From Negaprion brevirostris (Eukaryota), in contig JARDVH010000121.1 of the NCBI GenBank assembly GCA_030324005.1, forward strand, positions 10,633,553-10,684,533: a stretch of 50,981 nucleotides of DNA, in the 5' to 3' direction. Every line of letters starts with the position of its first letter. Within the stretch, counting starts at the first letter, position 1. The notes under the pieces were generated by a model, which was given only the letters and a program-made list of their open reading frames with translations, was not told the DNA's origin and searched no databases. Below, in pieces: positions 6,891 through 48,786 of the stretch. A program made the translations under genes and the position numbers.

Positions 6891-6926
6891 AACTGGACCA
6901 AATGAAAGAAGCTCTGAAACGTGCAG
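6891..6926 (+). CDS. Micro-exon class B (36 nt): xLDQMKEALKRA
   Basis: Acceptor ctttctccctggttttag|AA, donor CAG|gtgcgt; paralogous to 18820, 21393, 36830. Confidence 0.85.
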
Positions 6927-9900
6927 GTGCGTCTCAAAACAAAAGCCATTTTTTTGCTTCCAAGTTGATGTCTATCCTTCCTTTATGCCTATTGTATTTA
7001 CATGAAATGCAGTTTTCAATTCATTAACTCCATTAGGCATTGTTATCGTGTTTTAACTTATTGCCCACCTCAATGTAATCTCAATATTATGTAAATTGAT
7101 GAATACCAAGTAAGAAGTGAAGCTGTCGGAAGGACAAAATTAAACACTTTGTTCACACTCCTCTAACCCTACCATTAGTTTGGAGTGATTAATTTTAAAT
7201 TTATTTGTACACCACTGAGAAACACATTGGTCCTCCTCATGTGGCCACGGTGCCACATTTTTACCAACTCACAGCGCCAGGCGTGTGATTTCAATTCAGG
7301 CCTTCTGTGGCTGTCTGCATGCAGTTTGTATGTTCTCCCGCTGGCTCTGTGGGTTTGCGTGGAGTGCTGCGGTTTCTATCCACAATCCAAACATGTGCAT
7401 GTTAGATGAACTGGCCATCGTAAATTATTTCATATTTTCCAAAGGTGTATAGGTTAGGTAGATTAGTCATGACACATCTGGAATTATTGGGACAGATTTA
7501 TGAGGGCGAGAGAGGTGCGTAAGGGAGTGCTGGAAGGGAAGAGGGTGTGAGTTAAGTGGGCTTGGATAGGATGCTGTGTCGGAGAGTCGGCACAAACACG
7601 ATGGGCCGAATGACATAGTTCCGCACTGTAGGGATTAGGAGGTCCTACTGTATCTGGCAAGTGCAAAATTTCCTGCTAGTCTGACTCCCTTGAATTTGTC
7701 GTAATATACCTGATTTCTTTTCCACTATTGGATACTTTGCAACAACTAATCAGCTCTAAAATCATTTACACAACACTGCTAAAATGCATTGAGTTTTGCA
7801 TCGGATATTTCACAAGTCGATACCGGGCCGGAAAAAGGACAGAGTTAATCAATGTAACACCTGATAATGCGATTCAGTGGCTTTCCTACAGTGCAGATCA
7901 TGCTCAGTGCAGTGGACGTCAGTGGAAGTGAATCACGGACGACCTTTCTTTCAGGCTGCGATGCTGCAGGTTTTGTAGTCCTATGCGAGGTTGATTAGAA
8001 CCTTATAAACGTATAGGCATTGATAATTTCCAGGTCCTCAAAGTTGACTCTCCCCCTCCAAACTACTCGTCTGACCTTATCATCGTAGCTCAAAGACTGG
8101 ATTACAAGGAAAAAGGTAAGAAATGCATCAGCCGTTATTCTCCATGATATTAGGTGTGGTTGAATTGATCTCGATACCAGGGCTGCATGGGTGGCAAAGG
8201 GAAACCATCAAATCGTGATACTGACTGAGACAATTTGTAGCCAAAGAACAAAATAGATCAATATTTTCGAATGATTGAAGTCAAGCTCCACAGCATCTTA
8301 TGCATCCGATATATTTTGAATCAAAAATACAGTAATTCCAGCTTTATAAAATTTCGCTCGATCGTGTCTCTCTGTACGTGCGGAGGGAACTATGCTAAGG
8401 GAGAGAAATTCCCGAAGTGGAATGAATATTTTTCGATGGCAATGAAAATAGTGGGATGACATTGTTTAGTCCAACATCTATGTCAAATCCTTACAGGCGA
8501 AGCAATGGCTAGATTTCAACGCTCGTTCTGTGCCAAGCAGGCGAATAATGCGTACATTGTACCACATGCCCATAGCAGTCTGGCACAGGTTAAGGCTTTA
8601 GATCAATGATAGGATTCACACCGATCGACACAAACCTTGAGAGAAAACAAATCACACACATTTTCACTCAGGATTTTATATTGTTTTGAATTACGATTAA
8701 AACTTCGTACTCATAGTAAGGTAGACGCCATTTTCCTCGTGATCGCAGGGAGATGGCAAGGAGGCTGAGTCATTAAGCGCATCGAACATGCTGTTCCATT
8801 TTATTTGATCATGAGTGATTGGTGGCTTTAATCCATACAGAGGTCCGTAAAAAATCTTAAAAATGACTAATAACATGGCTATGAATTTCAGTTTTAAATT
8901 TAACAGATCATGTATTGTCTTTTGCATTTGATGAATATAGTTTTAAAAACCAGTTGTCCCGTTCGTTAGGAATTGTTTCATCCTTCGATGAAAATCGTAA
9001 AACGTCGAGAAAGCTGTGCTCGCCGCCATCAGTTCTGGAATATGCATCATCATATGGTTTCTGCCCTATTTAAAATTCGAGCAGTCTTTTGTACAGGTGG
9101 AAAAAAAAGGTCTATTCCCATTGTATTTTCATCCTCGGCATATGAAAGCCAGTCTTCTCAACGCCGTTTTGAAAATTTTCTGCAGGATTTAATTGGCAAC
9201 GTACATCTATAGTCAGAATAGCCTGTTTTGAATTTGCAACCAGCTCACGATTTTGCAGGGCATTGATAATGGCAGTGGCAATCATTATATGAGACGCAAT
9301 CTTTCATTCCCCATCACTTTAGAATTCTACGTCTATTCATGAGCCCCATATATGCATACCGATAACCGCATTTTTTTAGCTTTGGGAATGGAGGCGTCCA
9401 AGAAGACTGAACAAAATGCACGTTTTCTTTTCCTCATTGCCCCCGCCCACCTATTCTAATAATCACTTGACTGCTAAGAGCGTTTGTCTGCTGTAAAATC
9501 CGTGGACTAGGGCAGTTTGCTCTACCTTCAAGAAACGTTTAACGTGTGTTTTAATATGCTTTAGAATTGGATGATCTTCGGCAGAAGTGCAGTAAGTAGC
9601 AAATGATTTACCCTATCACTCTCGGCATGAAATCATTAAGTATTAGCTCAACATCAATTGTCATGTTTATCGTCGAGGTACCTTTCAGGCTATTTGAATA
9701 TACAAATGAAAGAGGACGTGATTATCACTTCAGTCGTTTGCTTTTTTAACGTGGTCTTTGTTGAATTTATGAGAAAACATAGACCCTGATGTCCCATATT
9801 GCGCTGGCACACCCGTAAGAGAAGCCAGATAGAACTTACAATACATAGCATCTTCATCCCCTTTACACGAAATGTTCGTTTAACAGAATACTCTTTCTAT

Positions 9901-15900: not shown

Positions 15901-18900
15901 GTGAGTATGCAAAAGGCATAAAACTATTTCAAATGCCTGCTATTACCAATATCCGACATCTTCTTTACTTACTGTTTTTTTTCATCACCGTTTTGCCCAA
16001 TACCAGCAAAACAGTTTTCTGTTGTATGTTCTGTTCATACGTACTATCAGACCATCCTCCCAGAGTTGGCAGTGGCGTTGCAGATGAGTATTCTGATTAA
16101 ATGCAATTGGTCTCCTAACTTTTTCGAACAGTATCCCTATATATTGACGATCTCAATCATCAAGTTCAATGAGACAAAATAGCGAAAATGAAGTTGCAGC
16201 AATGTAGCGCAGAGAGTGTCATTCAACTCAAGTATCTTTGAAACTAATGAATGTTGGACAAGATGCGTGAAGGCAACTAGATATATATCTATATAGTCGT
16301 GCAAAATATTCACTTAGACATTGCAAGCAAAAACATACAAAAAATCTGGAGATTAGAATTTTTCCATCCAAATGTGGGAAAAGGAGGAAATCACCACTCT
16401 GATTTGACCTGTGTCATACTGCAATGTTCTCCATGAAATACTGTGCGCACTTTGCCCAGTTTATCATATTTGATGAGGTGCTTTTACTTTATGGGATAAA
16501 GGACTGCGGATCAAACATCGCATTATTAGCATCATCCCGAATTTAAAAAAATCAGCTCTTACACATTAAATCAAGCTCACTGCCACAAGGATAAGGAGGA
16601 TGCCTGAGAAATAGATATCACCCGGTCTGGTGAGATCGATTCGGCTGTTGGATTCAATCTACTGAGCTGACGGCAACAGGACAACTCATGGTCCTCTTTG
16701 CACGAATATGGATCTCCAACACCATCTGGCGTCGTCCCAGGACACCGTATGACGGTATGTTTCGTGGAGTTTTCACTGGATTTTGTCTTGAATATTGTTT
16801 TTGTTTTACGTGTGTCTTCTTCCTTCTTCGAATGTTCGCTGATTTGCAACCAATGGCGGGACAGGGCCGGGGGTCACAACACCCAATGACAGTATGTCAG
16901 GTCAGCCCCGTTGTGCATTTTTTTTAAAGCAGAGTCTACTGAACCTATGGAATGCACACTTATGTTGTCTTCCGCCTGAATACCTCCTGGTGAGTTTCGG
17001 TTTTTAACGATGTTCCATTGTAAATTATGAACCTTTCTGCTTAATATACAGGAGATCTGTGTTCTGGTTTGGGTCATGCTGGTTTCCCTACTATTCGGGT
17101 AATATTCGCCTGTGCGATATGCGGGACAGGCCTGGTATGGTTCTCTGTTGGCTTTTGATCTGTGGTACCGCAGTATCAGCAAATGTTAGCTATATTAATT
17201 TAAAATATCCTGTTCTATTTTCTGTGTGATTTCTTAGGCCTTGCCCAGTTGAACATATTATGCACTACAAATAGTTCGGCGCATCATGCAATGTGTGTTT
17301 TTTTTTGCATCTTCGCTGGAGTTGAATGTATCAGTTATAACTATTTGCTGGCGTTGAATGGTGAAGATTTTGTCAGTTATACTGTAAGTACTTTTATATA
17401 TTGCTAAAGAGAGGATAGTTGAGCGCAGCTGCTGATTTGGAGAGCCAATGAGTTAACATCCATACTTGAAGTACGCATACTGAGATTCCAGTGAATGAAG
17501 GTTTATTTTCTGCTGAAGTGTTTATCAACAAGCATTTGGGGATTTTGTGCAATCAAAAGCATGCTCATCGCTGTTGGACATTAATAAAATGTGTTATACA
17601 GTCCAAGTATTTTCAGAATTAAACAATCTCGTTTGTACCTAGTGTAAATTCAGTTCAGTAAATAAATCTGCTATTGTTGCCCATACATTTGTCAGCACTC
17701 CAAAGCTCTATCATAATTCATCTTTGGTATGGCAACGCCATAAATATCACTGCTGAATAATTTAATTGCCTGATATTATCACGCCAGAAATTAATATGAA
17801 TTAAGCAATGTTGGAACATAATCGTATGGTGGCCTGGATTGGGGAGATATCAGCACGCACAGTGTCAATTTCCCTAGAAATAGAAAGCATAATTTATGTA
17901 AATCTTTCGTCCACTTAAACAAACGCATCACTTAATCGAAGTATGCTCCAGTCTCCTAACCACAATAGATCTTTTTCAATCAACCAAACACAGACAGAAG
18001 TGGACGGCTGCAAGACACAACCAGTTATTCACATTTGATTTGGGGAGGAAGAATTGTGTTAGTAATATTTCAAAATTTAAGAACACCAGGAGTGCAAAGA
18101 AAATGATCCGGCTCCATCTAACACGTGTCACTTCATTCATTACTGCATTGACACAGCTGCCGAGAAAGATGGATAAAATTCCTAACATCACGTCATGATT
18201 TTATGTGAAGCTTCCATCAACTTGGGCCCCCAGGCTCGAGCCAGCGGACGTATCAGGTTCTCTGATTGCGCCTTGATTTATTTTTTAACTTTTAACTATT
18301 AATTACCCTACATTAAAACGAAAAACAAAGCTATCTAAAACTCAATCCCATTAAATCAGATTGAATAAGGCATTCTTGTAATGACCCTTTCATTATCTAT
18401 GGCATGGCAACCAAACATTATTCTGCATAACAGTTGTAGATCGTCCTACAAGGTCTTGTGACTCCTGACATAGAGCAAGGCACTCTTGCATTATTTGCTG
18501 AACGCAAGACAACTTAACTTCCTGGACTTAAATTCCACGAGTAATTCAAAGAACAACTTCAATAACCTCCATGAATGTTGCTTTTGCTTTTCATCAATCA
18601 TCCATAATCGTTTCTGCCCCTATATTGGTATTTACCCCCGCATCTGTGCGGACTAATGGCGTTGTGTGTTAAAATAAAACAAAGCAAACAAAAAAAAGTG
18701 TAGATTTTCTACCGCATTGTGTAAACCTCTGTTTTACATACGCATTATTTAACTGTTGCTGGGATGGATATACCTCCTACAAGGTCAGCAGTTAATTAGC
18801 ATTCTTTTTTTAAATTAAGAAATGGACCATCTGAAAGGTGCTCTCCAGCGTGCAGGTGAGTGTGATTCGGAAGTAGGTTGCCAATGGTTTACTTCTGCTC

Positions 18901-21900
18901 TTGCTTATGCTTCACTTATTCTCCTCATCGTACTAAGGTTTTTCATTTACTTTATCTCGTTTCTGTTTTATCCGCCATTTATAGGCGATAGGCTATCCAT
19001 GTCTGATGCTTACTCCATTAGCAGCTCGATTGATGTCATAAACCAAGTGGCAAGACTAGTTTGGGCAACAATTGTTGAAAAGCAGTTCAGAGAAAAATGG
19101 AGTCAAGCGTATATAGTTTCAAGAAAGGAGTGCCTGAGACCAATCAATTCATATGTATTTTCACTGTAATTACCCAAAGGAGGTTGAATTCTAGCGACCA
19201 ATTTCTCACTTTCAATGTTTCCGACGGAATTCATAACTCATTTATACTGCTGTGGGGTATCACCATCCAATTGTTAAATTCTCCCTAACATATAGAATCG
19301 GCATAAATTTTACTGAATAGTTGCTCAGTAGACATTTTTCAGACGTAGAATAGAACATTCAGCAGGTGACGTCGATGCAGTTTCTACAAATTAAATTCAC
19401 CAACGCCATCTCCATCACCTTAATGCCGTGCTCCGACAACAGTTCTTCCCGAAGACAATTGTTCGTTTTTTTTTCCGTCATAAAAACTAGGATTGACGTC
19501 AACACCCTAAATATTCTCGATGTGGAGATTCCGACCTTGGACTGGAGTGGGCGGAGTAAGAAGTCTGATAACATAAGGTTAAAGTCCAACAGATTTATTC
19601 GGTATCAGGAGCTTTGAGAACCTTCATCGGGTGAGTCATTAGGTAAATCATCTTAATCATCTGATGAAGGAGCAACGCTCCGAATGTTCGTCATTCCAAA
19701 GAACCCGTTGGCGTTAAACTGGTGCTGTCAGGTGGTTTATTAAATATTATCAGCAGATGGTATTCAAATTTTATGCATCAGTGGAGGCAAAGTATCTTCC
19801 ATTCAAGTTGACTTCGATTGTGTTTTTGCAAATCAATTTAACATTTCTTGTCCACAGAACAGAATCTGTGGAGGAAAGAGAAAGGTATGATTAAACCATA
19901 TATTCTTTCTGAAATGCAGCATTTTTGTCAATGCGCTATTCTGTCAAAACCACATCATTGTGTCAAAATTGCGGTGAAAATTGAAGCCGGAAACATTTTA
20001 TTCATGGGCATGTTGAGGAGCAGCTGACATGGTATTATTCTAAGACAAAGGGCGTGAGGTTTAGCAGCGTGTTGAAAAGAGAAACATTTTAAATTCAGGG
20101 AATGCAGTTATCTGGACTGCACTGCCTCCGAATGTAGTGGAGGCTTGAAACCTTACAATATTTAAATAAAAACTATATTTTGATGAGCACTTGAAATATC
20201 ATAACATTCAAAGATATGGGTCAAATGCAGTAAACGAGCATGAGCACGCCTTTCGTGGGCAGATATTATCGGTGCCGCCTCGACGAGCCAATTAGCCGTT
20301 TCTGTGGCTATATGACTCTCTTGGAGCGACACAGTTGGAACTTTTTTTCAGGAAACCAAAACCGTCTGCTGGCAAGGACAAAGCGACACACATAATCTTA
20401 ATTTGAGCCATTACAGTGCTGTATTGCATTGGCGTTATTCACTTGCCTCATATTACTCAATGCAATTCTATAGGAAATAGCAGCACAATCGATAGCACAA
20501 TTTGAGTTCCTGCTGCGTCAGAATTTTGGCGTTATGAAACAAATGCCGCAGGTTTGAACAATAAACAGCTTTATGGCACTTCAATGCAGTACCAAGAGTG
20601 CAATGTAATTTGAGTGTTGGCGTTTTTTTTTTCAGGTGTGCTGCTACGTGTAAGCACGATCTGTTGCTCAGTTGAAGAAGCAAATTGTATAAGAGGAAGG
20701 AGCTTATGTCGCCCATCTCAGAGAGCTTTCACCCTATCACCAGACAAAATCAGAAAATGTCAGTGGTGTGTTGGATTCGGAGGTCAGCCGGATGAACACA
20801 TCTGCCAGCATTCAGTAGAAAGCGAAATATGGTAATGAATATTATTGAGAACATGATGAGCAGATGTCATAACAAGTTAATAGCAAAATAAGTGATGGCA
20901 CTCTCCGAAAACAAAACAAAGGGGCAAGTCAGAATAACGCTCTTGGGGATAACAAGTGCCTAATGGCCTTAACAATGAATTCAATGGTTTCAGAAAATTA
21001 ACTCTGTTTGTAACATTTTGTCTTAAATATACTTCCGGCCACTTCAGGTCTGAAAATAATCATGGGGAATTAAGCATTAAGAATATTTCTAGCTGCTTAA
21101 ATGCTGTGAAAATTGTTCAGTTTTCTGTCGTTATTTTCTGAGTGTTTCAGAATTCTAGCATTTACTATATTTTATGTTATTGTTGTCAACAGATACAACA
21201 TTCATTCTAGCGTGGGGCTTCTCCTGACAAATTGACTGGCCCACTGCCAAAATATCAATTGTTCCAAATGCTACTGCAATTCAGAATAAAGCTTGTTGCT
21301 GATTCGTGCAAATGTGAAATAAATCTTATATTTTTGACTAGGAGATCGAACTGATAGACCTAATGCAGTCGTTGATTCCCGAATCTCCCTAGAACTGGAG
21401 AATGCAATTGGAGCTTTGAAAAGTACAGGTGAGTGCACAATCTTTGTAGCATTTGAGTCTTTCTCTGAGAATTCCGATGTTATTGTCACAGAATATATTA
21501 CTGTTTATCACAATTTACCGTACCTTTGATGGAAATTAATTGAACAACAAATTGGAGATTCCCCTCCAAGTCACTCACCCAAGCTGACTTGAAAATATAT
21601 CACCTGTGCTTGACCGTCGCTGTGTCAAAATCCTGGAACTTCTTCCCTCGCTGCACGGTGGACATACCTACAGCTCAGGGATTACAACGGTTGAAGAAGG
21701 CTACCACCACGAAGTACAACGTGACATGGATAACAAATGATGGCCTAGCCTCCAAAATCCACATCCCATGAATGATTTTGTAAAACTTGACCTAATATTT
21801 GTAGAAGTATATTTTGAAGCATGCTTTCACTTTTGTATTTCATTCATTATCTTCATAATGTCTTTAGACTCACCAGATGATTTCTCAGTTGTGAAATTCC

Positions 21901-30900: not shown

Positions 30901-33900
30901 AGCATGCAAATCAAACGAGTACGCTTTACATTGCATTTTCATTGGAAAATACGATAACTTGGAATTGAGCATGTTTAGTAGGTAGTTAACTTGCTGGCTA
31001 CACAGCCAAAATTTATTATCATCATAGTTTCCATGGTGCACAACTACACAACTACCTCCCAAGCATTATTTCCATCTGAGCATAAGGTCACAATTTGGAA
31101 ATGTATGAATTCTAATCACGATTTTTGTAAGAAGAGTAGCTGACCAACACGCTTTTACTTGCATGAGATGAATTGTATAAGCCCTCAGTTCAGATTCATT
31201 AATTACATGGGTAATTGCGATCAGCAATTATTGTTTCTCAATTTTCCCTTTAAATTGACCATCCAAAGTTTAATACAGTGTTCAATCTCTCCTTAGAAAT
31301 CGATGGAGAAGATCATCCCTTAGGTAAAGGTGCATTGCCTCATTTGAATCGTTCTGAGATAATTTCAGATTGTGCAATAGCACGATCCATAGATTCTGAA
31401 TCGAAATCGCGTTTATAGGAAGAAACTAATCATGTGCGCAAACGTAATTATAATGAATTGCGGTGCTGAAATGATCTCGAAGGAACAGAATAAACTTTAA
31501 TACCGATTTTAGAACCAGCTATCAATGTTGTGGCAAAATGCGGGCTCATGTCATGTTGTGCACTGCTCCGACTTGAACAACGCAACATGCAGCATTTGAG
31601 GGATTGCAATTCCAGGTCAATTGTTATCGTGTTTTCAAATCGAATTAATGGAGAATATTATTATCTATTATTATTGTTGTTACTACATCAGAAGTGAGCA
31701 TGTTAGTCAGGATAAATCGTTGTTTTCGGTACCACATTACTCTTAAGCAGGCAACTATAAGTTTTCGTAAACGGCTGCAACATTATTGGTACACGTTTAG
31801 TTCTGAAAGGAGCATATTTAAAACCTTTTCGGGAAGGAACGGTGAGTTAATTCGTCGTCAGAGTACGGTCTGTGTGAGAGGCAACTTTCATGAGACGCCA
31901 TTCGCATGCACCTGCATTCAATGCCATGTTATTGCTGCAGGTATGTAACATGTAACAAACCGAAAGGCTTCCGTTAAGAAGTATTAGAGGAAGATTGGCG
32001 GATTGCCTCGCTGGACACAAATGACATATGTTGCAATTGAGCATCGGAGGCCGAGGGAATTGTGTTCATGGTGTCGACTATCACTGTTGTCCTCGTATCT
32101 TCAACCTTCTACAGATATGTTGGGACACTAGCGATCTGGAAGAATATGCCAGCACCTGTCTGATTTGTTTTCTTAATGGTGAAGTGCATTTTGAGAGTTA
32201 GAAGGAAAGATCATTTTGATGAACTTGCCAACCTGTGAGCTGCTTTTGCAGTATTTTTTCATATGGCAAGTCATGTGATGCATACTGTAAGTGCGCGTAT
32301 GAGGAGATCATCTCCCTCTTTTTCTTGGCATTTCGCTTTTTATTGTGTACGGTCCAAACTGCTGGCGTACAGAAACCCTAAAATAACTGCCAAATACCAA
32401 AGGCATCCGCCGAAAGGGAAAGTCTTTCGAGAATATTTCTCCAGCTGCGTTTTCTCATGCTGAAATGTCAAAACCCAGTCCATCGACTCCTCAAGCTAAA
32501 GCTCCATAGAAGTATGCAAGATACTTGTGTTCCAAGACTGCAATCCACAGACTTCACAGTATTTGGCGCGCCTAAAGCAACCTCGCAATAATGCCCATTA
32601 ACTTATCGTCAACTCGGGGAAGCAGAAGCTAAATGCAGTAGACCATGACAAGAAATCTGGAAAGAAAGAAAGGCAACGCCTCTCCGAAGTTGAATCAAAT
32701 TTGCCTAATTTTACTTTAGAAAAAAATATGTATGCTGCCCCGTGCATTCTGTTTTCTTGCCAGAACTCCAGCGCCCACTATATTTTCTTTTCACCATTCT
32801 TTAAGCATGTTCGAATTCCAAAAAATCCTGCACCCAATGCGAAGCCAGATATAGCACTTTGCATTGCTAGGGATTCAGCTGGCTATGTCTTATCCTTTGT
32901 TTAGAGATCTTAGTGTCTCTTCAAGTTCACCGCAGAGATGGTACTCAAATTCTGATACAGAGCTTAGAAATGACGGTGGAGGCAGCAATTACGACACAAA
33001 AGCCGAGCTCGCTTTACGGACTTTAAAGCTTCCTGCGAGAATGGCAGGGGGCATCCTGTCCAATTGGTCAGCCACTACCTGCCACAGGTCAGGAATCCTC
33101 CGACAAAGAAAGTGCTGAACTAGCATGGTGCATTGGATTCAACGGGCGTTTGTAGTACATAGCCTCTACTCAAAAACTGGAACGGAATGGGCCGCACCAG
33201 GAAAATATATGGTACTAAACAAAACAATTGAAATGGAAACGACTCGCTTGTTTTCATGAGTTACAGTCAAAACTGAAAATTTGAAGCATATTGTTGTTAT
33301 CTCTGAAAGCTGTCTTTCAGGTGGATACTGGAAGCGGCGAGCAGAAACAAAGATCTCAGTTAATCGGGAAGCAGATCCAGGTGAAACAGAGCCCAGCAGG
33401 TTGCGTTCCAACTTACATGCAATAAACGTTGGATGTACTGTCACGTTGGGGTGGGGGCGCTACTGAACCACAGTAAGCGATGCTTTATTCAATATTTACC
33501 AGCAGAGTTTTATCCTTTTCCTCATGAGGCGTATGACTATCAGGACCATTGGTAAGTTTTGTATCAGTCCAGTGACTTTTTTATGGAGGGTGTTCAGCTG
33601 CAGTGAAAATTAAAGATAGGTCTACAACTGCCAACAATTCAATTTCAATGGGCCATCTTGGTTAAATATTGATGTGCAACGTATTTGCCAAATTGCACCT
33701 ATTTCTGCTCTTATATACATGGAAATGCTTTGCTCAGTACTTAATAAGTGGCATATAATAGTAAGGTAGTAAAAAGTCTGACAACACCAGGATTAATTCC
33801 AACCGATTTATTTGATAGTAAACTCACTAGCTTTCGGGTTTGTCCCTCAGTCAGGTGAATGGAGAGTTCTGGCCTCAGACAGAGCATAAAAAGCACAGAC

Positions 33901-36900
33901 AGTTTACAGATTACTGATTAGAATGCGNNNNNNNNNNNNNNNNNNNNNNNNNNNNNNNNNNNNNNNNNNNNNNNNNNNNNNNNNNNNNNNNNNNNNNNNN
34001 NNNNNNNNNNNNNNNNNNNNNNNNNNNACTGTGTTTACCCCAGTCCAACGCCGGCATATCCACATCACACAAAACTAAGCACAGCCATGCGAATATGTTA
34101 ATGCCTTCCCTGTAATTTAGTTGAGATCGGCGAGAAAGCAACTGAAGATGATTAGTTCCATAATCATTGCGTAGCTGCTGCTGCTAAGATGATGGAAAAT
34201 TATATTGATGCAGGTTTTTCGAATGATTGCATTTGATTACGATTTTCTGTGTTTCCTTGGAGACATTCGCATTCAGATATTGCCTTGTTAATCAATGCAT
34301 TAACTCACGTCTTAACTCCTGAGTTCAGATCATGTTTTGTTTTCATGTTTGACTCAAAGATGCAATAAGGCAGCAGGCGGGTGAACGTGTATCACCTTAA
34401 AAGGAAGGTCGCTGAGCAGATTAGGTGAGATAGCTACCATGTTGGAACATTAAACTGTCATCATCAGTCTTCTGAAAATTGAGTGTAGCCATAATTCGCC
34501 TGATTAAGTTTTCCTGTATTTTTTCATGGGGACATGTAAAGCATGGATAATGTTCTGCATCGTTGGTTGAATGCTATCTATACTGGAACAACTGAACGAG
34601 GGGCACAACAAATAGAGTCTGAATGGTTTTCGGAACGAAAGGCTGAATTCTTATAAGGTTTTTTTTGTCCCCGTTGCTTTTGAAGTTCTTGATATCACGT
34701 GGCTGAACTGAGCTGGTTAATACTTGAAATGGGCAGGTGGACTTTTGCGAAAATGTTGGACAGTCTCGGCTTCCATCCTCTGGAATTTTGGAGAGAAAAA
34801 TGAGGTTTAATCCTATATGATCTCGAAGGTTCTTGATAGACTATATGTGGAAAGAAAACCGTTTGACGGGTGAAGCTAAAACTAGGTGTCACTGCTTAAA
34901 ATTATTGGGTCATTCATTCGAAACTTCCATCGTGCAGTTTTTAGTCAAATGTTCTGGTGTTTGTGAACTCTCTTGCTGAAAAAGTAGTGAAGAAAATCGT
35001 TAAGATAGACTTAGGTCGATTGCTGGTAAACATGACGTTAATGTGGGTTTGGGAGTAGGTGAGGCGCAGATCTGAGACTGCCAGATTAACCATTGCCTTA
35101 TTAAAACCTGGAACATTTCGAGCGGATGAATGGCCTACTCTTCCTCGGGTATGTATTTTCCCACTTGTGTACTGTCTCTGAGGACGTCAAGGATACAGGC
35201 AGTGGTAAAGAACCTGAGTTGAGGTTGAACATCAGGCATCAGTGAATGATGGGGCAGGTTTGAAGAGAAGAGTATTATTCATTATTTCTAATATGAGAAA
35301 GGAATATTAGTGTTGGCGTGATGAATTTTCAACAAAGCCTTCTTGATTAGTAATCTAAATTAAAGTTGCGACTACAATTGTAGGTCAGAAGCTGGAAAGT
35401 CTGTGGGGAATAGTGCAACTTCTGTTCCGCTTTGCCTTGTGGCAATCGAGTAAGCATATTAGAAGAGTGTGAGAGAATAATTTCCAATGTCAAGTTTTAA
35501 CCCAATAATCTGCTATGGGAGAGGCTCCGTGATGAAATATTTCTCGATAGTCTCATGATTCTTATGGCAGTAGCGGAGGACTGTATAAGTCAGGAATCTT
35601 CCACCAGCTAATGAATTTAGTTTTGCAGAGTTCACTGGGTGAGAAGGATGGTTAAATTTAGTTGCATTGGTGCGATAATGGGTTGTCGAATATTTCTACA
35701 TATAAGTTCAATTCCTATGTGGCCTTTTGTCACATTCTCGTTCACGCATTTGTGAACCCCATATCTCTGAAATAATTTGAATCATGATTCTTACCGTAGA
35801 AAGAAAGTCAAATGCGAAGGACAAAGGTAGAGATTTCAAAATATCTTGTTTTTTTTCATATTGAAAGAGCGCTGCTTGCTTCCAGATAAGATAATATGGC
35901 AACTGTATTTTAACTCATTACTATAAAGCCTTTTTTGAGTGTGAATGGGGTTGTAAAGCAAATTTATGCACAAATCAGAAATCACAAAACTATTGGTTCT
36001 TGTTGTTAAATGTTTTGGAATGAGCTAAATGGAAATTCGGTAACTATTTCATTGCTGAAGACTTAGTGAAATGAAAATATAGTTGCCATCAGAAGATTCC
36101 AGGTGATTACTGTAGATCCAGTTAATTGGATAGGTGCATGGGAGATCATATAATCAGAGAAACTCTATCGTGTAGAAGGGGAACATTCAGCCCATCCGTT
36201 TGGTACTGAAAACAATCCCGCCCCAAGCCCTATCAACACAACCCCACGCATGTACCCCGCTAATCCCTCTAATTTGCACATGGCGAATTTAGCATGGCCA
36301 ATCGACCTTACCTGCACATTTTTGGACTGTGGGATGAAACCGGAGCGTCCAGAGGAAACCTACGGAGACACGGGTAGAATGTGTGAACTCCACACGGACA
36401 GTGACCCAGGTCCCTGGAGCTATGAGATAGCAGTGCTAACAGCTGTGCCACCATATCCCCCAATCCCCGCCCTTTTGATGCACGAATAAAAATATATATG
36501 CTAATAAATCCAGATTGCCTATGCTATTATTAAGTTACTATCAATGCATTGTTGTGAGCTGAACGCTTTGACCAAATAATTTGTGTATGTTTTGTGCATA
36601 CAGGTTGATTGACTGGTCTAAATAGGAAACGTTCATATTTGTATTTTAAAAAAAGTACTGCTAACGATGTGCTTCTCTCCAGCTCTCTGGAATGCATAAC
36701 ATGAACGCGGAAAGTAAAATGGACAGACACTGGGAAAAATCAAGTCTATTTTACATGTGTTATTACACTTTTTGGTAGCTCATTTAATTGCATAATGTAC
36801 CACGTGTATCCTTTACCTTTGTTCATCAGAATTGGACAGGGTGAAAAAGGCTCTTGCAGACACAGGTAAGTTGCAGAGGCACAGTTGGAATCTAACTGTC

Positions 36901-42900: not shown

Positions 42901-45900
42901 TCTTTTTGCACTTGAATACACTCAAAAATCATGCAGTCATGTGATTGTCTAAATCATCAGTATAAAGATATTCAATTTCCCTCTTAGCCCTGGTGTCATT
43001 CCACGCAACTGCAAGTCCTTGGATGAGTTTATGTGTGAAGAATGATGGGTGAACCTAGAGTTTGATTATTGCACAAGAGTGATCTAAATTAACTGGAAAT
43101 CTTTCAAAAGTGCTTAGGTCTAATTGCTGCTCAATATGTGGAAATGTATCCACTCTGGCAGATGATGGGCAATGTTTACTATACAGAAGTGTACGTCAAT
43201 TAGTCTCCATCTCCAGAAAGGCAAACCTGTGCAAGCCCAAGATGATGTTGAAGTATATTTCTAATACAATTGGGCATTTGTGAAGCGTGCGGTAAAAAAA
43301 AGGTGACTGTTTAGAGCGAGTTATGAACAGGCTTGCTATGGTTTCCCTCGAAACATGAGACACCCTATGTATGTCCCTAATTTATTAGATGCATTGAAAG
43401 GTGAGATCTAAGGGATTTACACCCATTTCGGTGCTGTCCAAATCTCGTGATCCATACAGATCAGACCGGCAACAAAAAAAGTGCAATACAGGTTGCTGAT
43501 TTTTTTTAACGCGAGAAGTAAAAATCTGTTCACATGCGGACTGGGTAAGGAGATTGGCGTGGACTTCCGTAAGGGCTGCTTGATGACGGTGAAAGTTGAA
43601 TAAATACCATATTGTGTTAAAAAGGACGTTTCTGCATGTCTTCATTGTATGGTCCTAGTGGTCTGAGTGGTATTCCGTCTTTGTATTCCTAGGCTAGTTG
43701 TTATTCATTAATATCTTGACATTCATATTAATTAAGTGATTTTAACAATGGCCTTCTCGTCGGACTGACGTTAGCCGCACAAGTTCACCATTCAAAATGA
43801 TTGGTGATTGCTTATGCAATACACGAAGTTTAAAATTCATTTCCAATTGTCAGTAAATTTTAAAAACAAAATTCTTTCAACAGAACACAAACTGTGATAA
43901 TGCAATTCGCTTCACTGTTCTTTCCGTTCGAGATATACACATTATCACTATTTATTATATAAGAAAAAATAAACTCTGAGAATCCCCATTGTATTTATCA
44001 GGGTAAATTTTACATGCGTGCTCCCAAAATGATTCACCCCACGAGTGCACACACTGTTGTTCTGCTTCATAAATGGAACCATTTATTAATCAAAAGCTTC
44101 ATCTGAAGTTTATTATTGAAGAAAGTGAGCTATCGCATTTTGGCAGAAATGACAGCTACACGCATGTGTAGACTGAAAGACATAGTTTTCAGATTTGTAC
44201 AGGACTGGAATAATGAGTGTTCAGGTGCATCGATACTTTGAGGTCGCTGAAATATTGAGAGCTAGTTAGAAAAACATGTGAGGCCTTGTGATTCACAAAT
44301 GGAGATGTGGATCAGAAATAGCGTGGGATTAATGTTTAGCCATTATAAAGCTTCCCTTCATCCAAAACTGGACACTAGCGTACAGTTCTGGCACCTGCAC
44401 CTCAGGAAGCATGCAAATGTCCTCAAGTAGCGCAGAACAAATGCACCTTCACAATTCCCATGCTGCGGGATTTTAACTAAATTATTCCTTTTCGTCAAGC
44501 TGGAGGTGCTATCCTTGTCGCAAAGGACAGTGTTATAAAATTCGGCAGAAGTGCACAAGGATCATTTTCGTAAGGTATGGAGATAAAAAAAGACAGCTAG
44601 CTGTTAAGTCACAGACATAAACTCTTGGAGAAAAGTCGCGGGTGTATATAAAAAATAATATATCCACATAAAACACGTTGTGGCCATTGAAACTCGTTGC
44701 TTAGCTGCATGATATATATAAATGGATGTATTCACACATATACTAACAACATTTGCCATAATTACACGCTAATATCATGCTGGTTCTAAAATCGGCTGTT
44801 GCATTATTCCAGCGAATTTTGGTCTGTCGATTGGCGGCAAGGTGTTACCTATCAATTTTATATACAACAGTACAATGCAGGGTTGTTGCATTCGAACTTG
44901 TTATTACTTGTCAGTTTTATTTGCCGCCATAGATAAAATGCTAAACGACACAAAGGACGGTAAGATGGTATTCATATAAACAGCCATTATTTAATTGCTT
45001 CAGAACATTTAACCAAATAAGAAATCGCCTACCTACCTCAGTTTAGGGGGCCAGTAAGTACCAGACGTTCTATTTTATCCATATGTCAAATATTTCCATT
45101 TTATAAAGACCAAAGTGTAATACAGCAAACAAAGATACTTGAATGTAAAGTTACAGATTGAATGTTGAAGGCATTTATCATCAAAAGAAAATTTAGTTAG
45201 TGGCCAAGAGGTTGGCATCTGGTTAAAAAAAATCAATCCCAATTTTGGGGAGATATGTCAATTGTGTAAGGGATTCGATAATTGGAGGTGTGTTGTGATG
45301 ACTTGGCGGTAAGGGATAGCAGACCCAGAAAACGTGACGGAATTTAATGATGTAGGAGATTTACAGGGGCTGGAATTTTTAACAGAGGCAGGAGTGGCCA
45401 TGAACTGCACCAACATTGCTAGGAGGTATATCAAGAGTGTTCTGGAAGCACACTTGTTAAAGGTTAATTCCAACCAAATGTTACCAAAATTAGAGCTATG
45501 GTCAATTGAGTGTTTGTGGAGCGCCGTCAGATGTACCGACATCCAAATTTTCCTCCGAGCAACAATCTCAACCCAACCTTTACAAAAGTGTGCAGCGCAG
45601 GATGGGAAAATTCTGCTCAATGTGAAATTCTCAGCTACATGTCAGATTCAATCGATCACTTAAACACACCAAATATTTCAATTTTCCCTGTTTTTAATAT
45701 TCGTTTTAAAATGTTATTTATCTTATCCTCATTTTAGAATGATTCTGGAGTTCAACGTGGTCGAGCGTCACTGCGTAAAATCACTTCGAACTCGTTAAGG
45801 ACTAGTTATTTATTTACTTTTGAGGGAGTAGCATTCGGGTTACGGACCCTTCTGCTGTAAATGGTAATTCCAGAGAAAGAGAAAATGAACAGTGGAAGAC

Positions 45901-48786
45901 AATGTACCACGGTTTTCACACATATTGTTTTGATACTCATTCAGATAATGCCTGATCTGCTTGTTAAGTTGTCCTGGTACAGCAACAAAAACCTGTTGGC
46001 ATGGAAGAATAAATAACATACACAAATATCACATGCAAATACATTAGGATTTCATCTTTAATACCATGCAGGGAACGTAAACAGCTTTCAGAAGCAAAAG
46101 TGAATATCAAAGGTTTGATTCGAAATGGAAATTGTGCAACCGTTACTTAAAGTCACAATCATGAAAACATTTCAAAAACGCTTTGAATGTTATATTGGAC
46201 TATGTTGTGGGCTGTGATGTGAGCCTTTTAATTCATCACATTTTTACCCTTCAGGTAATCAGACCAAGTCACGAATTTCTCCAGAATAGCTGTTTTAATC
46301 AAGATATAGCGTGGTCCCTGGAAAATCACAGATTGTTGGTGGTAATAGCTAGCACCGAGAATTGAGAAATGCACAAGGAGTTATACTTTCAAATTCGATT
46401 ACAAGTCATTAGAAAATGTCAATCACGTTTTATGAGTTATCACTACCCACTTGGAGTTAGTTGTTAAGGTTACACTATTCAAATATTAAACCAATCACAA
46501 TGACATCACACTTGCTAATTTGTGATGTCCAATGCATGCAAATAGTTAATCAAATACTTAATCAGGATGGCACGGTGGCACAATGGTTAGTACAGTTGTC
46601 TCACAGCGCCAGGGATTCAGATTCAATTACAGCCTTACGTTGGTGTCCGTGCAGAGGCTGCATAATCTCTCCATGTCTTCTGGTTTCATCTGAGTGTTCT
46701 GGTTTCCTCCCACATTCCAAAGATGTACGGGTTAGATAGATTGGCCATACGAATTAGCCTCTTAGTGTCCAAAGGCATGTAGGTTAGGGGACTAGCAGGA
46801 TTTGTATGCTTCATTAAAGGGCTACAGCAGGTGGAGAGCCTGGGCAAGATGTTCTGTTGAAGAGTTGGTGCAGAATCAATGGGCTGAGTGGTTTCATTCT
46901 GCACAGTAGGGATTTCATGAGTTTATGCTTCTAAGCCAGTTGAGTTAAGAGTCATTATTGCATGTTATCATTTTCCCAGCTTGTGAATGTGTCTGTAGAT
47001 ATCACTCCCCTTTTCCAGTTCCAGATGTCTGATTTAATAAATTCTCTCAGACCCATCGCCTTGCTGCTTAACTGTGAAAATTTTAATCAGAAGAATTGAT
47101 TTTTATCATAGCAGCTTTCTAAACTGATCTGATCATTAACCAGTTCAGGCTCCTTTATCTCCAGCTAATCAAACAGATTTTATGTCCTCTCTTTAACATG
47201 CTCTGATGGCCCTGTGCACGTTGAGTACTGCACTGCAGTGTCAGCCGANNNNNNNNNNNNNNNNNNNNNNNNNNNNNNNNNNNNNNNNNNNNNNNNNNNN
47301 NNNNNNNNNNNNNNNNNNNNNNNNNNNNNNNNNNNNNNNNNNNNNNNNAGATGTTGCGTCTCCTCCTTTGCTGGGAAAATTCAATCACAAACTTTTGATT
47401 TAGAATTAAGAAGTTGCACGCTAAACAACACTGTCGTGATAATTTTCTTGAATGATGCAGGCAAGCTGAAGTGCACTGTATGATTATGAAAACACATTTT
47501 TTTCTCAGAAAAAAATAGGCAATTTCTCCATTTGTTTTCTTTAAAATAGTAAATCAAGCCCAATTCCAGGAATTGTGCTATCAGTCTTTGCGTACCTGTG
47601 TTGGATTTCTAAATAATTGTATCAGAGAGTCGTAGAAAGGTAGAGCACAATGAATTACTTTTCGGCCCAACATGACTGTTCTATCAAAGGGAACTGAAGG
47701 CCCCCTTTTCATTCTACGTATCTACTCAATGACCCATTCATCCATATATCCACTTATTCATAGATTTCTGCAATCCATCACGCCATCTTTGTCAGTCCTA
47801 ACAATTAGTTTCAGTCTCCAGCAGACCATAGCTCTGGAGGGGGTAAAACAGGCCATTTAGTCCATCGAGTCTGCTCTGCCTTTCAAAGAGATCACGACTG
47901 ACCCAATATGATAATCCTCAACTCCGCATTTTATCCATGTCTGCATAAGCCCTGAATGCACAACTCAATAAATGTCTGTCGGTCTCAGTCCTGTATACAC
48001 TTAACGACCAAACCTCCGCAATACCCTACTGTAAAAAAAAATCCGAAGATGCATAACTGTCTGAGACAAGAAATCTGTACTAAACTGTGTCTTTAATTAG
48101 TTAACCATTGCTCTGACATGATGACTCTGGTACATTGAATTTGTTAAGTCTTTTGATTTGTCCCATCCCTTCATTGCGAAGTTCAACATTTAGGTCACTG
48201 GGAAAGTTTATATTCATTCATAAACACAAATTATTCGAACAAAAATCGTGTCCTTCCCCAATTTGATGGAGAAGAAAGTACAACTCCAGTTTATTCAGGT
48301 AATGGAAATCCCACATCTCACTTTTCTTTGAAAGACGACTGCCCCATCACCAAAACCTTCACGTCCATCCTACATTGTGGAGCCAAAAATTGTATAGATG
48401 ACCACAATTGAGCGTTGACAACATTCCAAGTGGAATTTATAGTCGACCCCACTCAAGTTCGCAAGTTCATCCTACGCAATTCTACTGACTGTGTGCGCCA
48501 CAATAACATTCTGTCAGTAGAGTGTAAAGTGGTTTTAATTGTAACATACAGCCCGTGACACAATGTTATTGTTTAAAAGTAATATTTAATGAGTTCAAAT
48601 GACCACAAATTAGCAGATGCACGGTTAACGCGTCACCTTAGATATTATTCAATCTAATCATGTCCTTCACAGCAAAACTCCAGGGGAACAACTGATAAGA
48701 AATTAACAAGAAACTCCACTTTGTAAAAATGTTAATCATAATATTACTTTGTCCAGCAGAATTGGAAAAACTGCGGAAAAAATGCA
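6891..48786 (+). CDS. Internal part of a spliced micro-exon gene encoding a repetitive coiled coil (11 exons, 333 nt); family unassigned, butyrophilin/BG-like exon architecture
   Basis: Join 6891-6926, 8089-8115, 9565-9591, 18820-18855, 19858-19884, 21393-21428, 24190-24216, 30160-30186, 36830-36865, 44933-44959, 48760-48786. All are AG..GT bounded, phase 1-1 and stop-free: (E)LDQMKEALKRA AQRLDYKEK ELDDLRQKC KMDHLKGALQRA EQNLWRKEK ELENAIGALKST EQRLSNTEK ELDELRMKC KLDRVKKALADT DKMLNDTKD ELEKLRKKC. Further exons may be missing. Confidence 0.85.
7241..7636 (+). mobile_element. HE1-type SINE, near full length
   Basis: tRNA-like head ctcacagcgccagg..ttcaattc, core gtgggttt..ggtttc..ccacaatccaaa, CR1-derived tail gatgggccgaatg..gcactgtagggatt. 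Confidence 0.8.
8089..8115 (+). CDS. Micro-exon class A (27 nt): AQRLDYKEK
   Basis: Acceptor ctgaccttatcatcgtag|CT, donor AAG|gtaaga; paralogous to 19858, 24190, 44933. Confidence 0.85.
9565..9591 (+). CDS. Micro-exon class D (27 nt): ELDDLRQKC
   Basis: Acceptor ttttaatatgctttag|AA, donor GCA|gtaagt; paralogous to 30160, 48760. Confidence 0.87.
9800..13090 (-). mobile_element. Decayed Gypsy LTR retrotransposon (K02A2.6-like gag-PR-RT-RNaseH-integrase)
   Basis: RT WVAAIVPVRK..IRICGDF (11742-12128); RNase H remnants GIGATVSHVMP and TILTHD*PLESIFG; integrase HGTVHMKEI, WQRIHV..LDAHAK, NPSSNGLAE (~10200-10700); many stops and frameshifts. Confidence 0.85.
13845..14700 (-). mobile_element. Rex1/Babar-type LINE RT fragment (spans an N gap)
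   Basis: LDPLLFA..SLALHSTLEH..YVRFIFIDCRSTFNIIIPTKLISKL and QGLQDITGY..PDELNAF motifs. Confidence 0.85.
14950..15285 (-). mobile_element. HE1-type SINE, diverged
   Basis: attcggcccatt tail, gctaatccacctaac, aaactccacacagaca. Confidence 0.7.
18820..18855 (+). CDS. Micro-exon class B (36 nt): xMDHLKGALQRA
   Basis: Acceptor T-tract then aaattaag|AA, donor CAG|gtgagt. Confidence 0.85.
19519..19740. mobile_element. Penelope-like terminal (pLTR-derived) inverted element with degenerate hammerhead core
   Basis: gatgtggag..ttggactgg head; ggttaaagtccaacag inverted against gttggcgttaaactgg; ctgatgaaggagcaacgctccgaat. Confidence 0.65.
19858..19884 (+). CDS. Micro-exon class A (27 nt): EQNLWRKEK
   Basis: Acceptor acatttcttgtccacag|AA, donor AAG|gtatga. 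Confidence 0.87.
21393..21428 (+). CDS. Micro-exon class B (36 nt): ELENAIGALKST
   Basis: Acceptor ttcccgaatctccctag|AA, donor CAG|gtgagt; GAL motif shared with the 18820 exon. Confidence 0.83.
21570..21775 (+). mobile_element. 3' end of an L2/CR1-type LINE (or SINE tail derived from it)
   Basis: gtcaaaatcctggaact..cggttgaagaaggct..ccacatcccatgaatga tail. Confidence 0.6.
22200..24014 (+). mobile_element. CR1 LINE, 5'-truncated ORF2 RT to 3' UTR, frameshifted
   Basis: VVYLDFQKAFAKV, GVPEGSVLGP, PHLEYCVQ, RRMRGDLIETYKI, RRNFFRQRIVNLWN. Confidence 0.93.
24190..24216 (+). CDS. Micro-exon class A (27 nt): EQRLSNTEK
   Basis: Acceptor tttacccttaccatcacag|AA, donor AAG|gtatga. Confidence 0.87.
24440..24535. 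repeat. Degenerate (CCAT)/(CCTT) simple repeat
   Basis: ccttccttcc, catccatccatccatt. Confidence 0.55.
25420..25572. repeat. (CTAT)n / GATA microsatellite
   Basis: Runs of ctatctatctat. Confidence 0.9.
26424..26765 (-). mobile_element. L2/CR1-type (jockey-like) LINE RT fragment
   Basis: TALGIRATFDLICNHGILAKLKS; minus strand SILGPNIFSCFINDLPSII. Confidence 0.75.
27207..27353. mobile_element. Penelope-derived hairpin element
   Basis: About 50-bp inverted arms (27240-27290 vs 27304-27353) around a short AT-rich loop; same head as 19519 and 28865. Confidence 0.75.
28130..28380 (+). mobile_element. CR1 ORF2 3' fragment
   Basis: LEKLGLFSLAKRRLRGDL; catctggagtatt..ggaaggatgtgaaggccttggag. Confidence 0.8.
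28864..29326 (+). mobile_element. Penelope-like element 3' end with inverted terminal segment
   Basis: About 60-bp inverted termini; interior FRTHEDGLNRDLGFMSHYL* resembles a GIY-YIG C-terminus; degenerate hammerhead-like ttgacgaagggg..gaaagc near 29204. Confidence 0.8.
30160..30186 (+). CDS. Micro-exon class D (27 nt): ELDELRMKC
   Basis: Acceptor gtgtttg(t)ncag|AA, donor GTA|gtaaga. Confidence 0.87.
33768..34066 (-). mobile_element. Penelope-like element end, same family as 28864-29326 (spans an N gap)
   Basis: 33768-33927 is the reverse complement of ~29129-29292; the segment after the gap is the inverted head. Confidence 0.75.
36155..36455 (-). mobile_element. HE1-type SINE
   Basis: ggactgtgggatgaaaccggagcgtccagaggaaacc..aactccacacggacagtgacc..gcagtgctaac. 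Confidence 0.85.
36830..36865 (+). CDS. Micro-exon class B (36 nt): xLDRVKKALADT
   Basis: Acceptor cctttacctttgttcatcag|AA, donor CAG|gtaagt. Confidence 0.87.
37035..37126 (+). mobile_element. Penelope-like terminal fragment with degenerate hammerhead core
   Basis: cacctgacgaagggg..aaataaatctgttggactttaacatggtgtcgtgagacttct. Confidence 0.65.
37800..39230 (+). mobile_element. L2/CR1-type (jockey-like) LINE ORF2 remnant
   Basis: GPPGSIIGPIILNCFNNDLPSIIWLEVGMFADD (38877-39179); upstream decayed ORF2; left boundary uncertain. Confidence 0.75.
39620..40036 (-). mobile_element. CR1 3' end
   Basis: GDLTEVHKI..FLFPKVEESKMRGHRFK..GNLFTARVVSVWNKLP. Confidence 0.88.
40136..40380 (-). mobile_element. 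CR1 ORF2 endonuclease N-terminus
   Basis: LDCIYFNARDLRGKSDELRAWMGAWDW. Confidence 0.82.
40470..41835 (-). mobile_element. CR1 ORF2 RT, decayed
   Basis: EDWGIATVVPLFKKG, RDLGVQVHSSLKVATHV, SPHYRKEVEALQ. Confidence 0.88.
41925..42765. repeat. Tandem array of about 8 diverged copies of a ~107-bp unit
   Basis: Anchor gagtcga-like motif at 41962, 42069, 42176, 42283, 42391, 42498, 42605, 42709. Confidence 0.88.
44933..44959 (+). CDS. Micro-exon class A, divergent (27 nt): DKMLNDTKD
   Basis: Acceptor ttttatttgccgccatag|AT, donor ACG|gtaaga; L4 and T7 match EQRLSNTEK; fills the expected A slot between B and D. Confidence 0.75.
46566..46918 (+). mobile_element. HE1-type SINE, near full length
   Basis: ggcacggtggcacaatggttag (A box)..tcacagcgccaggga..ttcaatt (B box)..tctgcacagtagggatt tail. 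Confidence 0.85.
47825..48400 (-). mobile_element. Decayed CR1 3' end(s)
   Basis: ggccatttagtccatcgagtctgctctgcc and gataatcctcaactcc 3'UTR motifs. Confidence 0.6.
48760..48786 (+). CDS. Micro-exon class D (27 nt): ELEKLRKKC
   Basis: Acceptor ttactttgtccagcag|AA, donor GCA|gtaagt. Confidence 0.87.

Follow-up and report, generated by a model that had tools for sequence, protein, structure and literature searches.

Analysis of the window, a stretch of 50,981 nucleotides from the genome of Negaprion brevirostris (G000:C121:10633553-10684533; genome size 2.69 Gb), supported the view that exon lengths maintain the heptad register along a giant gene that probably encodes a coiled coil and ends in a B30.2 domain. 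The analysis further revealed a feature that is new here: cysteines are nearly confined to the core throughout the gene family, and those encoded by one exon class, termed D, cap segments of the rod. The reading that we prefer, with a probability of roughly one half, is that the product is a long parallel coiled-coil dimer residing in the cytosol, with buried, redox-sensitive cysteines.

A splice-site scan located 14 microexons in the window, two of them tentative, between positions 6891 and 48786 (Table 1). All are flanked by AG and GT, lie in phase 1-1 on the plus strand and measure either 36 nt (exon B) or 27 nt (exons A and D). Neither length corresponds to a whole number of heptads, whereas the pair (36 + 27 = 63 nt) encodes 21 residues and thus exactly three heptads. 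This arithmetic had been put forward in a preliminary description of the window. Three B-A-D modules were found. In each of them, counting from the start of B, Leu occupies residues 2, 9, 16, 23 and 26, Cys occupies residue 30, and Met, Ala or Val is found at residue 5, while the combination of Met at residue 2 with Leu at residue 5 stems from a fourth B exon at 18820. The proposal that residues 2, 9, 16 and 23 share one heptad position with the cysteine was thus confirmed in all three modules. For the second core position the same proposal was only partly correct: residues 5 and 26 are indeed hydrophobic, but the d residues 12 and 19 are Ala/Thr and Lys/Thr, respectively, in the window.

Table 1. 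Microexons of the window, with their assignment to B-A-D modules (positions are those of the window; scores are profile scores unless stated otherwise).
Feature	Position	Strand	Module	Remarks
Exon B (36 nt, 12 codons)	6891..6926	+	1	a = 2, 9; d = 5, 12; score 31.9
Exon A (27 nt)	8089..8115	+	1	Leu on a (residue 16), Lys on d (residue 19); score 22.4
Cap exon D (27 nt)	9565..9591	+	1	Cys codon 9588-9590; exon end A/gtaagt; score 10.9
Exon B (36 nt)	18820..18855	+		score 32.0
Exon A (27 nt)	19858..19884	+		score 26.3
Exon B (36 nt)	21393..21428	+	2	score 22.5
Exon A (27 nt)	24190..24216	+	2	score 24.7
Cap exon D (27 nt)	30160..30186	+	2	Cys codon 30183-30185; score 18.3
Tentative non-heptad linker exon (27 nt), after Cys	30790..30816	+		splice scores 5.2/5.1; below profile cut-off
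Tentative non-heptad linker exon (27 nt), with Gly and Pro	31297..31323	+		weak splice scores 2.1/2.9; below profile cut-off
A-like exon (27 nt), without core Leu	35800..35826	+		score 17.4
Exon B (36 nt)	36830..36865	+	3	score 35.9
Exon A (27 nt)	44933..44959	+	3	score 16.9
Cap exon D (27 nt)	48760..48786	+	3	Cys codon 48783-48785; score 15.1

Comparison with a contig of a related organism showed no change in the D exons at 9565 and 30160 among the differences listed, where about two would be expected at a background of 3-4%, which is a weak signal. Read by hand, the linker exon at 30790 carried one synonymous and one replacement change and that at 31297 one synonymous change. The introns of the window also contain a LINE remnant that we recognised by eye as reverse-transcriptase-like (22430-23900). 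A TCTA microsatellite lies at 25414-25573 and a decayed tandem repeat with a unit of about 107 bases and a minus-strand open frame of 194 codons at 41931-42749.

Exons were initially selected on splice score and coiled-coil composition, without regard to position, and the selection was then refined with a positional profile. At a score of 8, 730 kb of contiguous DNA yielded 140 candidate exons on the plus strand versus two on the minus strand, and both of the latter represented the inverted copy of a genuine exon pair (L042:7725 and 9320). This inverted 36 + 27 pair, as well as a tandem identical 27-nt exon elsewhere (L112:4063 and 5384), may reflect a recent duplication or an assembly artefact. 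Alternation of 36- and 27-nt exons was observed at 79 of the 110 junctions of the gene, compared with 54.4 +/- 5.2 in shuffled orders, none of which reached this value in 20,000 trials; downstream of the window it held at 51 of 60 junctions. Hydrophobicity in the alternating runs peaked at a period of 3.5. Over 40 B-A pairs, the a column showed 90, 88 and 95% LIVMF at residues 2, 9 and 16, and the d column 80% at residue 5, 35% at residue 12 and 5% at residue 19, percentages that are biased somewhat towards the pattern because the profile was trained on the same exons. Residue 19 is Lys in 28 of the 40 pairs. The d column is weak and only half hydrophobic. A collagen-like reading of the 27- and 36-nt exons was rejected, as they encode no Gly-X-Y.

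The array to which these exons belong comprises at least 111 exons (63 of 27 nt and 48 of 36 nt) between -219 and +314 kb, along with a few other short exons, and encodes a rod of more than 1,100 residues, which is a lower bound since assembly gaps occur. The gene spans about 540 kb, with the window about mid-way, and closes with a B30.2 exon at +318 kb (L066:8226-8746) followed by a stop. This exon matched SPRY with an E value of 2e-15 and PRY weakly (E 0.11); its best match among solved structures was the intracellular B30.2 domain of BTN3A1 (PDB 4n7i, E 1.5e-24). Another intact B30.2 exon, located at -273 kb, closes an upstream array that begins near -1.2 Mb; an apparent break in this exon was rejected as a 10-N gap. 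The two arrays may be separate genes or may share a common 5' end. Altogether, the contig carries six B30.2 exons of the family at 6.2-10.95 Mb. They appear to form two blocks (6.23-10.95 Mb), in each of which one gene on the minus strand and two arrays on the plus strand are oriented head to head. The array at 7.14 Mb and that at 9.46 Mb have matching first rod exons, and early exons likewise match between the array at 8.39-8.41 Mb and that at 10.42-10.44 Mb. Beyond the B30.2 exon of our gene, an open frame of 385 codons on the plus strand (about +342 kb, counted from the start of the window) and a frame on the minus strand whose start resembles a signal peptide (about +394 kb) probably represent the next genes. 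On another contig, a dense cluster of conventional B30.2 matches (G000:C84:85-101 Mb) probably represents BTN/TRIM genes.

Exon D follows the pattern E-L-x-x-L-x-x-K-C. It resembles the start of B (on average 10.7/27 identical positions with the first 27 nt of B versus 6.2/27 with A), and its cysteine therefore stands in for the second core leucine of B. A splice-signal origin of the cysteine codon was rejected, as the codon would give a non-consensus exon end. Four copies of D in the gene bear the cysteine (-16746, 9565, 30160 and 48760). The residue had been described as invariant, which is true of the three copies in the window but fails for the gene as a whole, where only four of seven D-like exons encode it and the others have Ser, Leu or Ala; Tyr and Met are seen in D-like exons as well. 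Between pairs of Cys-bearing copies, 18-20 of 27 nt and two to four of eight codons are identical. Since so few codons are shared and the flanking introns do not align, these copies are old. The complete 30-residue module including the cysteine is found in a skate protein (P0157, residues 76-105), with Leu at all a positions, and in a catshark protein (P0180, residues 697-726), with Gln at position 9. The lysine next to the cysteine is not kept in skate. We also considered that the cysteine of D has no special role, having arisen once, been copied along with the exon and been tolerated as a small hydrophobic residue. The descent of the copies from one ancestor exon would agree with this idea, as would the scarcity of cysteine (1.3% of exon residues) and the occurrence in D-like exons of Ser and Tyr, both one base away from Cys. 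Yet the residue was retained in old copies and in skate and catshark, and cysteines occupy d in several independent exon classes, so that we regard a passive cysteine as scarcely credible.

Downstream of D, we observed either non-heptad linkers (-15991/-14962 and 30790/31297) or a B exon whose register is shifted by two positions. Counted along the chain, the cysteines of the window fall at positions 30, 81 and 138 (2, 4 and 5 modulo 7), with spacings of 51 and 57, a count that presumes no exon in the eight N gaps of the window and that moves the third cysteine to 120 (1 modulo 7) if the two tentative exons are left out. Because the shortened D exon resets the register, the cysteine column is common within modules but not across them, and the periodic inter-chain disulfides envisaged in the preliminary description were not supported. 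Instead, the D-exon cysteines cap rod segments.

The preference for core positions extends well beyond exon D. In the gene, 11 of 14 exon cysteines lie on core positions (seven on a, four on d), or six of nine when duplicated classes are counted once (P 0.02). In five paralogs (103 exons, two of them on the control strand), all 14 assignable cysteines were on core positions, 13 of them on d, although some are paralogous to one another and thus not all independent; four more cysteines could not be assigned. The 36-nt exons of the paralogs, for which no typing is needed, gave nine of nine. Among typed exons, a set that overlaps the five-paralog set in the upstream gene, cysteine showed the highest core fraction of any residue (0.93), compared with 0.87 for Leu, 0.32 for Ala and 0.14 for Ser. 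Taking gene and paralogs together, 17 of 25 core cysteines occupy d. Of 45 cysteines in the proteins of relatives, ten were given a register and eight of these were core. The core placement noted earlier as a column in the window thus turned out to hold family-wide. Blocks of 21-nt, one-heptad exons are also present in the paralogs (L087:5830 to L076:6004, -1124 to -1094 kb, and 6.95-7.06 Mb); of 13 such exons, 4 carry a cysteine on d (position 5).

To what extent such cysteines could meet was assessed in an idealised parallel coiled-coil dimer that was built with generic Crick parameters rather than on the sequence of the window. In this model, d-d' pairs (C-beta 4.0 A, S-gamma 2.0 A) are ideal for a disulfide, a-a' pairs (C-beta 5.5 A, S-gamma about 3.1 A) come near bonding distance, and surface positions are 6.6 A or more apart. 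Core placement together with these distances predicts that the cysteines face each other between chains. The earlier proposal of facing cysteines in a parallel dimer is upheld as a prediction, whereas the a-a' geometry reaches only near bonding distance; the cysteine of D would need a slight distortion to bond, which should be easier at the end of a segment. A single-sequence AlphaFold model of skate P0157 (mean pLDDT 45, a quality too low for fold search) placed helices at residues 3-57 and 67-105, the second ending at the module cysteine. Prediction of the P0157 homodimer (residues 18-295, two copies) scored 0.01 against a mark of 0.32 and gave no contacts, a result that speaks neither for nor against a dimer.

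Two thiols predicted to face each other might alternatively coordinate a metal ion, or be modified with an acyl chain by which the rod attaches to a membrane. His and acidic residues are present in the linkers that follow the cysteine at 30160, and palmitoylation of tail cysteines has been proposed for chicken BG proteins in the account of PMC5938342. Against a metal site, each chain offers one Cys per site and no CxxC, and His is absent from the equivalent linkers at -15991/-14962, in skate and in catshark. A buried core cysteine would moreover be a poor site for acylation. We consider a metal or acyl role very unlikely.

A first homolog search returned only multi-domain TRIMs. The gene shows the hallmarks of a chondrichthyan microexon rod-B30.2 family, namely an array of 27/36-nt phase-1 exons and a divergent terminal B30.2 domain. 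In a tree of B30.2 domains, 15 rod-family rows (our six B30.2 exons and RefSeq-type proteins of skate, ray, catshark, basking shark and chimaera) fell on one side with 100/100 support versus six BTN-type and ten TRIM rows; the tree is unrooted, 11 of its 28 inner branches are open, and it does not settle the orthology of database models to our gene. Several RefSeq models on the same B30.2 branch possess a charged rod and are misnamed TRIM39/58/69-like, A33-like or nuclear-pore anchor-like (XP_055510696.1, XP_038671249.1, XP_042192744.1 and others). The models scanned contain no Ig or RING. Database models comprise 202-1722 aa, mostly far below the length of the genomic arrays, and Pfam detected SPRY alone in family relatives, without RING or B-box. 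Isoform pairs from three species (P0155/P0156, P0159/P0028 and P0161/P0031) differ by one 9-residue segment, which is linker-like in two of them; assuming that these models rest on RNA, the differences fit expressed, skippable 27-nt exons. A 137-member cluster of the ESM Atlas (chordate proteins of about 1,579 aa, SPRY in 100%, ATG16-like coiled coil in 34%, score 0.84) provides no more than a lead to comparable rod-B30.2 proteins in other chordates.

The nearest analogies are found in butyrophilins and chicken BG proteins. Butyrophilins likewise combine small heptad exons with a terminal B30.2 domain, and their heptad number is described as variable (PMC12841164). Our gene differs from them by its more than 100 rod exons instead of a few and by a B30.2 domain that forms a separate branch (100/100) from the shark BTN and TRIM rows included in the tree. 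Nor was an IgV or IgC exon found for it by motif search, or a transmembrane exon, though gaps may conceal the latter. The BG tail, as outlined in PMC5938342 and PMC4046983, is a long coiled coil encoded by numerous very small exons, and since the first codon of each exon is split, the true heptad extends from one exon into the next; these accounts also mention alternative splicing and a conserved tail cysteine that projects outward. The 21-nt blocks of our paralogs recall these genes, yet BG combines 21-nt exons with Ig-V and transmembrane regions and lacks B30.2, while our gene has 36 + 27 nt exons, B30.2 and core cysteines. From TRIM proteins the gene is set apart by its 5' zone, in which a motif search found no RING, and by relatives devoid of RING and B-box. 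Tetherin/BST-2, which had served as the model in the preliminary description, is presented in PMC3235769 as a parallel coiled coil with inter-chain cysteines, C91 being on a core position, and as requiring two membrane anchors. This model was not supported: tetherin depends on a transmembrane segment at its N-terminus and a GPI anchor at its C-terminus, whereas our gene, about tenfold longer, terminates in a B30.2 exon and a stop, with no anchor exon found. By the features tested, the gene is thus not a member of the BTN, BG, TRIM or tetherin families. Long leucine zippers joined to B30.2 are known from the cytosolic enterophilins of guinea pig, and snake vespryns are secreted B30.2 proteins with a leader.

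The question of the compartment turns on the 5' ends. The 53 kb preceding the first exon, which include 6.9 kb (13%) of N, yielded no leader, Ig, RING or transmembrane exon, Ig and RING being sought by motif. A motif search of the 5' zones of the paralogs scanned detected no Ig either. Apart from one weak candidate, the 5' zones scanned held no transmembrane exon, although the 13% N in the gene's own zone could hide one. No CpG island was present at the 5' zone of the gene, and tblastn with the N-termini of relatives gave no match. Sequons were not enriched (six observed versus 4.2-6.5 expected). Among seven RefSeq-type relatives whose start could be read, four (Narcine, two catshark and one chimaera) begin without a hydrophobic segment; in length, these leaderless models fall far short of the genomic arrays, and they may be truncated at the 5' end. 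By contrast, the N-terminal 10-residue hydropathy of skate P0157 (3.26) and chimaera P0079 (2.71) is leader-like. One genomic candidate (L094:3797-3857) consists of ATG and 20 hydrophobic codons in phase 1 with a donor score of 7.4, and precedes the earliest rod exons matched in the upstream paralog by about 39 kb. It is possibly a leader exon, or else an AG/GT site without coding role (acceptor 4.8; five such sites elsewhere); in a protein search of its own genome it matched only itself. A second, equally good site, L120:1750, was rejected because it proved to be an internal exon of 24 nt whose intron had been read in frame, as was L175:2280, whose similarity to L094 tied third of 105 by protein score and ranked fourth by DNA score. 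Leader-like sites numbered 106 in 1.57 Mb, evenly distributed over strand and phase, and are often artefacts of intron pyrimidine tracts read in frame, while true exons gave a false leader in 2 of 140 cases. No leader was conserved between the 5' zones of the paralogs, whereas the rod exons are.

These data bear on a secreted or lumenal rod, in which splicing would join a leader exon directly to the rod exons and cysteines of the core would, by symmetric disulfides between chains, staple a very long dimer or trimer with B30.2 heads into a stalk in the manner of fibrinogen or collectins, the D-exon cysteines locking the end of each segment. This reading draws on the paralog cysteines, 13 of 14 on d and none on the surface, with the predicted d-d' geometry ideal and a-a' near, and on the capped module, whose cysteine was retained in skate and catshark although the adjacent lysine was not retained in skate. 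The leader-like starts of P0157 and P0079, the L094 candidate and the lack of a transmembrane exon in the 5' zones scanned (one weak candidate aside) are also in its favour. It is weakened by the ease with which leader-like sites arise from intron tracts, by the failure to find a leader for our gene or one common to the paralog 5' zones, and by the skate start, which would fit intron read-through equally. B30.2 domains, moreover, are mostly cytosolic. We judge a secreted rod to be a serious contender, albeit somewhat short of an even chance.

The cytosolic dimer that we prefer is suggested by analogy with BG and BTN rods, which are cytoplasmic in the sources cited (PMC5938342, PMC4046983, PMC12841164), and by the missing leader, the leaderless relatives and the chance-level sequons. 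The preference of the cysteines for d, their near-absence from the surface, the hydrophobic starts of P0157 and P0079 and the L094 candidate count against it, as do the weak d column with Lys at residue 19 and the fact that the dimeric state is itself a prediction. In the mechanism we propose, the exons would have multiplied by duplication, and selection would have kept 36 and 27 nt alternating because only the 63-nt pair keeps the register. D would be a B-like exon of reduced length, ending a rod segment with a cysteine at the site of the second core Leu of B, and the linker exons or the register shift after it would provide a hinge. The rod itself would be a dimerising spacer that presents two B30.2 domains, much as butyrophilin and BG tails do. 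BG heptad tails are indeed reported as cytoplasmic, and a soluble BG tail, the zipper protein, as a regulator of actin-myosin (PMC5938342, PMC4046983). The cysteines might then behave like Cys190 of tropomyosin, a facing pair in a parallel cytosolic dimer that, as summarised in PMC6274839, is normally reduced and becomes linked in the failing heart; ours, too, would be cross-linked only under oxidation. Tropomyosin, likened here without sequence comparison, has one cysteine in a continuous rod, whereas the rod considered here is segmented, contains many cysteines and bears a B30.2 head.

The literature searched, which did not cover subscription journals, contained no description of a microexon rod-B30.2 family, and databases hold the family mostly as misnamed fragments. 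Heptad microexons and B30.2 domains are known from butyrophilin/BG tails, but are enlarged here to genes of half a megabase and a megabase. The gene of the window thereby offers a large natural test of how protein periodicity constrains exon length, and the rule that cysteines keep to the core sharpens the question of the compartment in a readily testable way. If the rods are cytosolic, they would be tropomyosin-like, redox-sensitive scaffolds. If they are secreted and disulfide-linked, B30.2 domains would act outside the cell, and multivalently, in sharks. More speculatively, and in our opinion doubtfully, cartilaginous fishes may possess a whole family of secreted, disulfide-stapled giant rods tipped with B30.2, each encoded by more than a hundred microexons, in which cysteines restricted to the core lock the segments and exon skipping tunes the length of an extracellular, collectin-like fibre. 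Were this true, it would represent an immune or structural fibre without a described counterpart.
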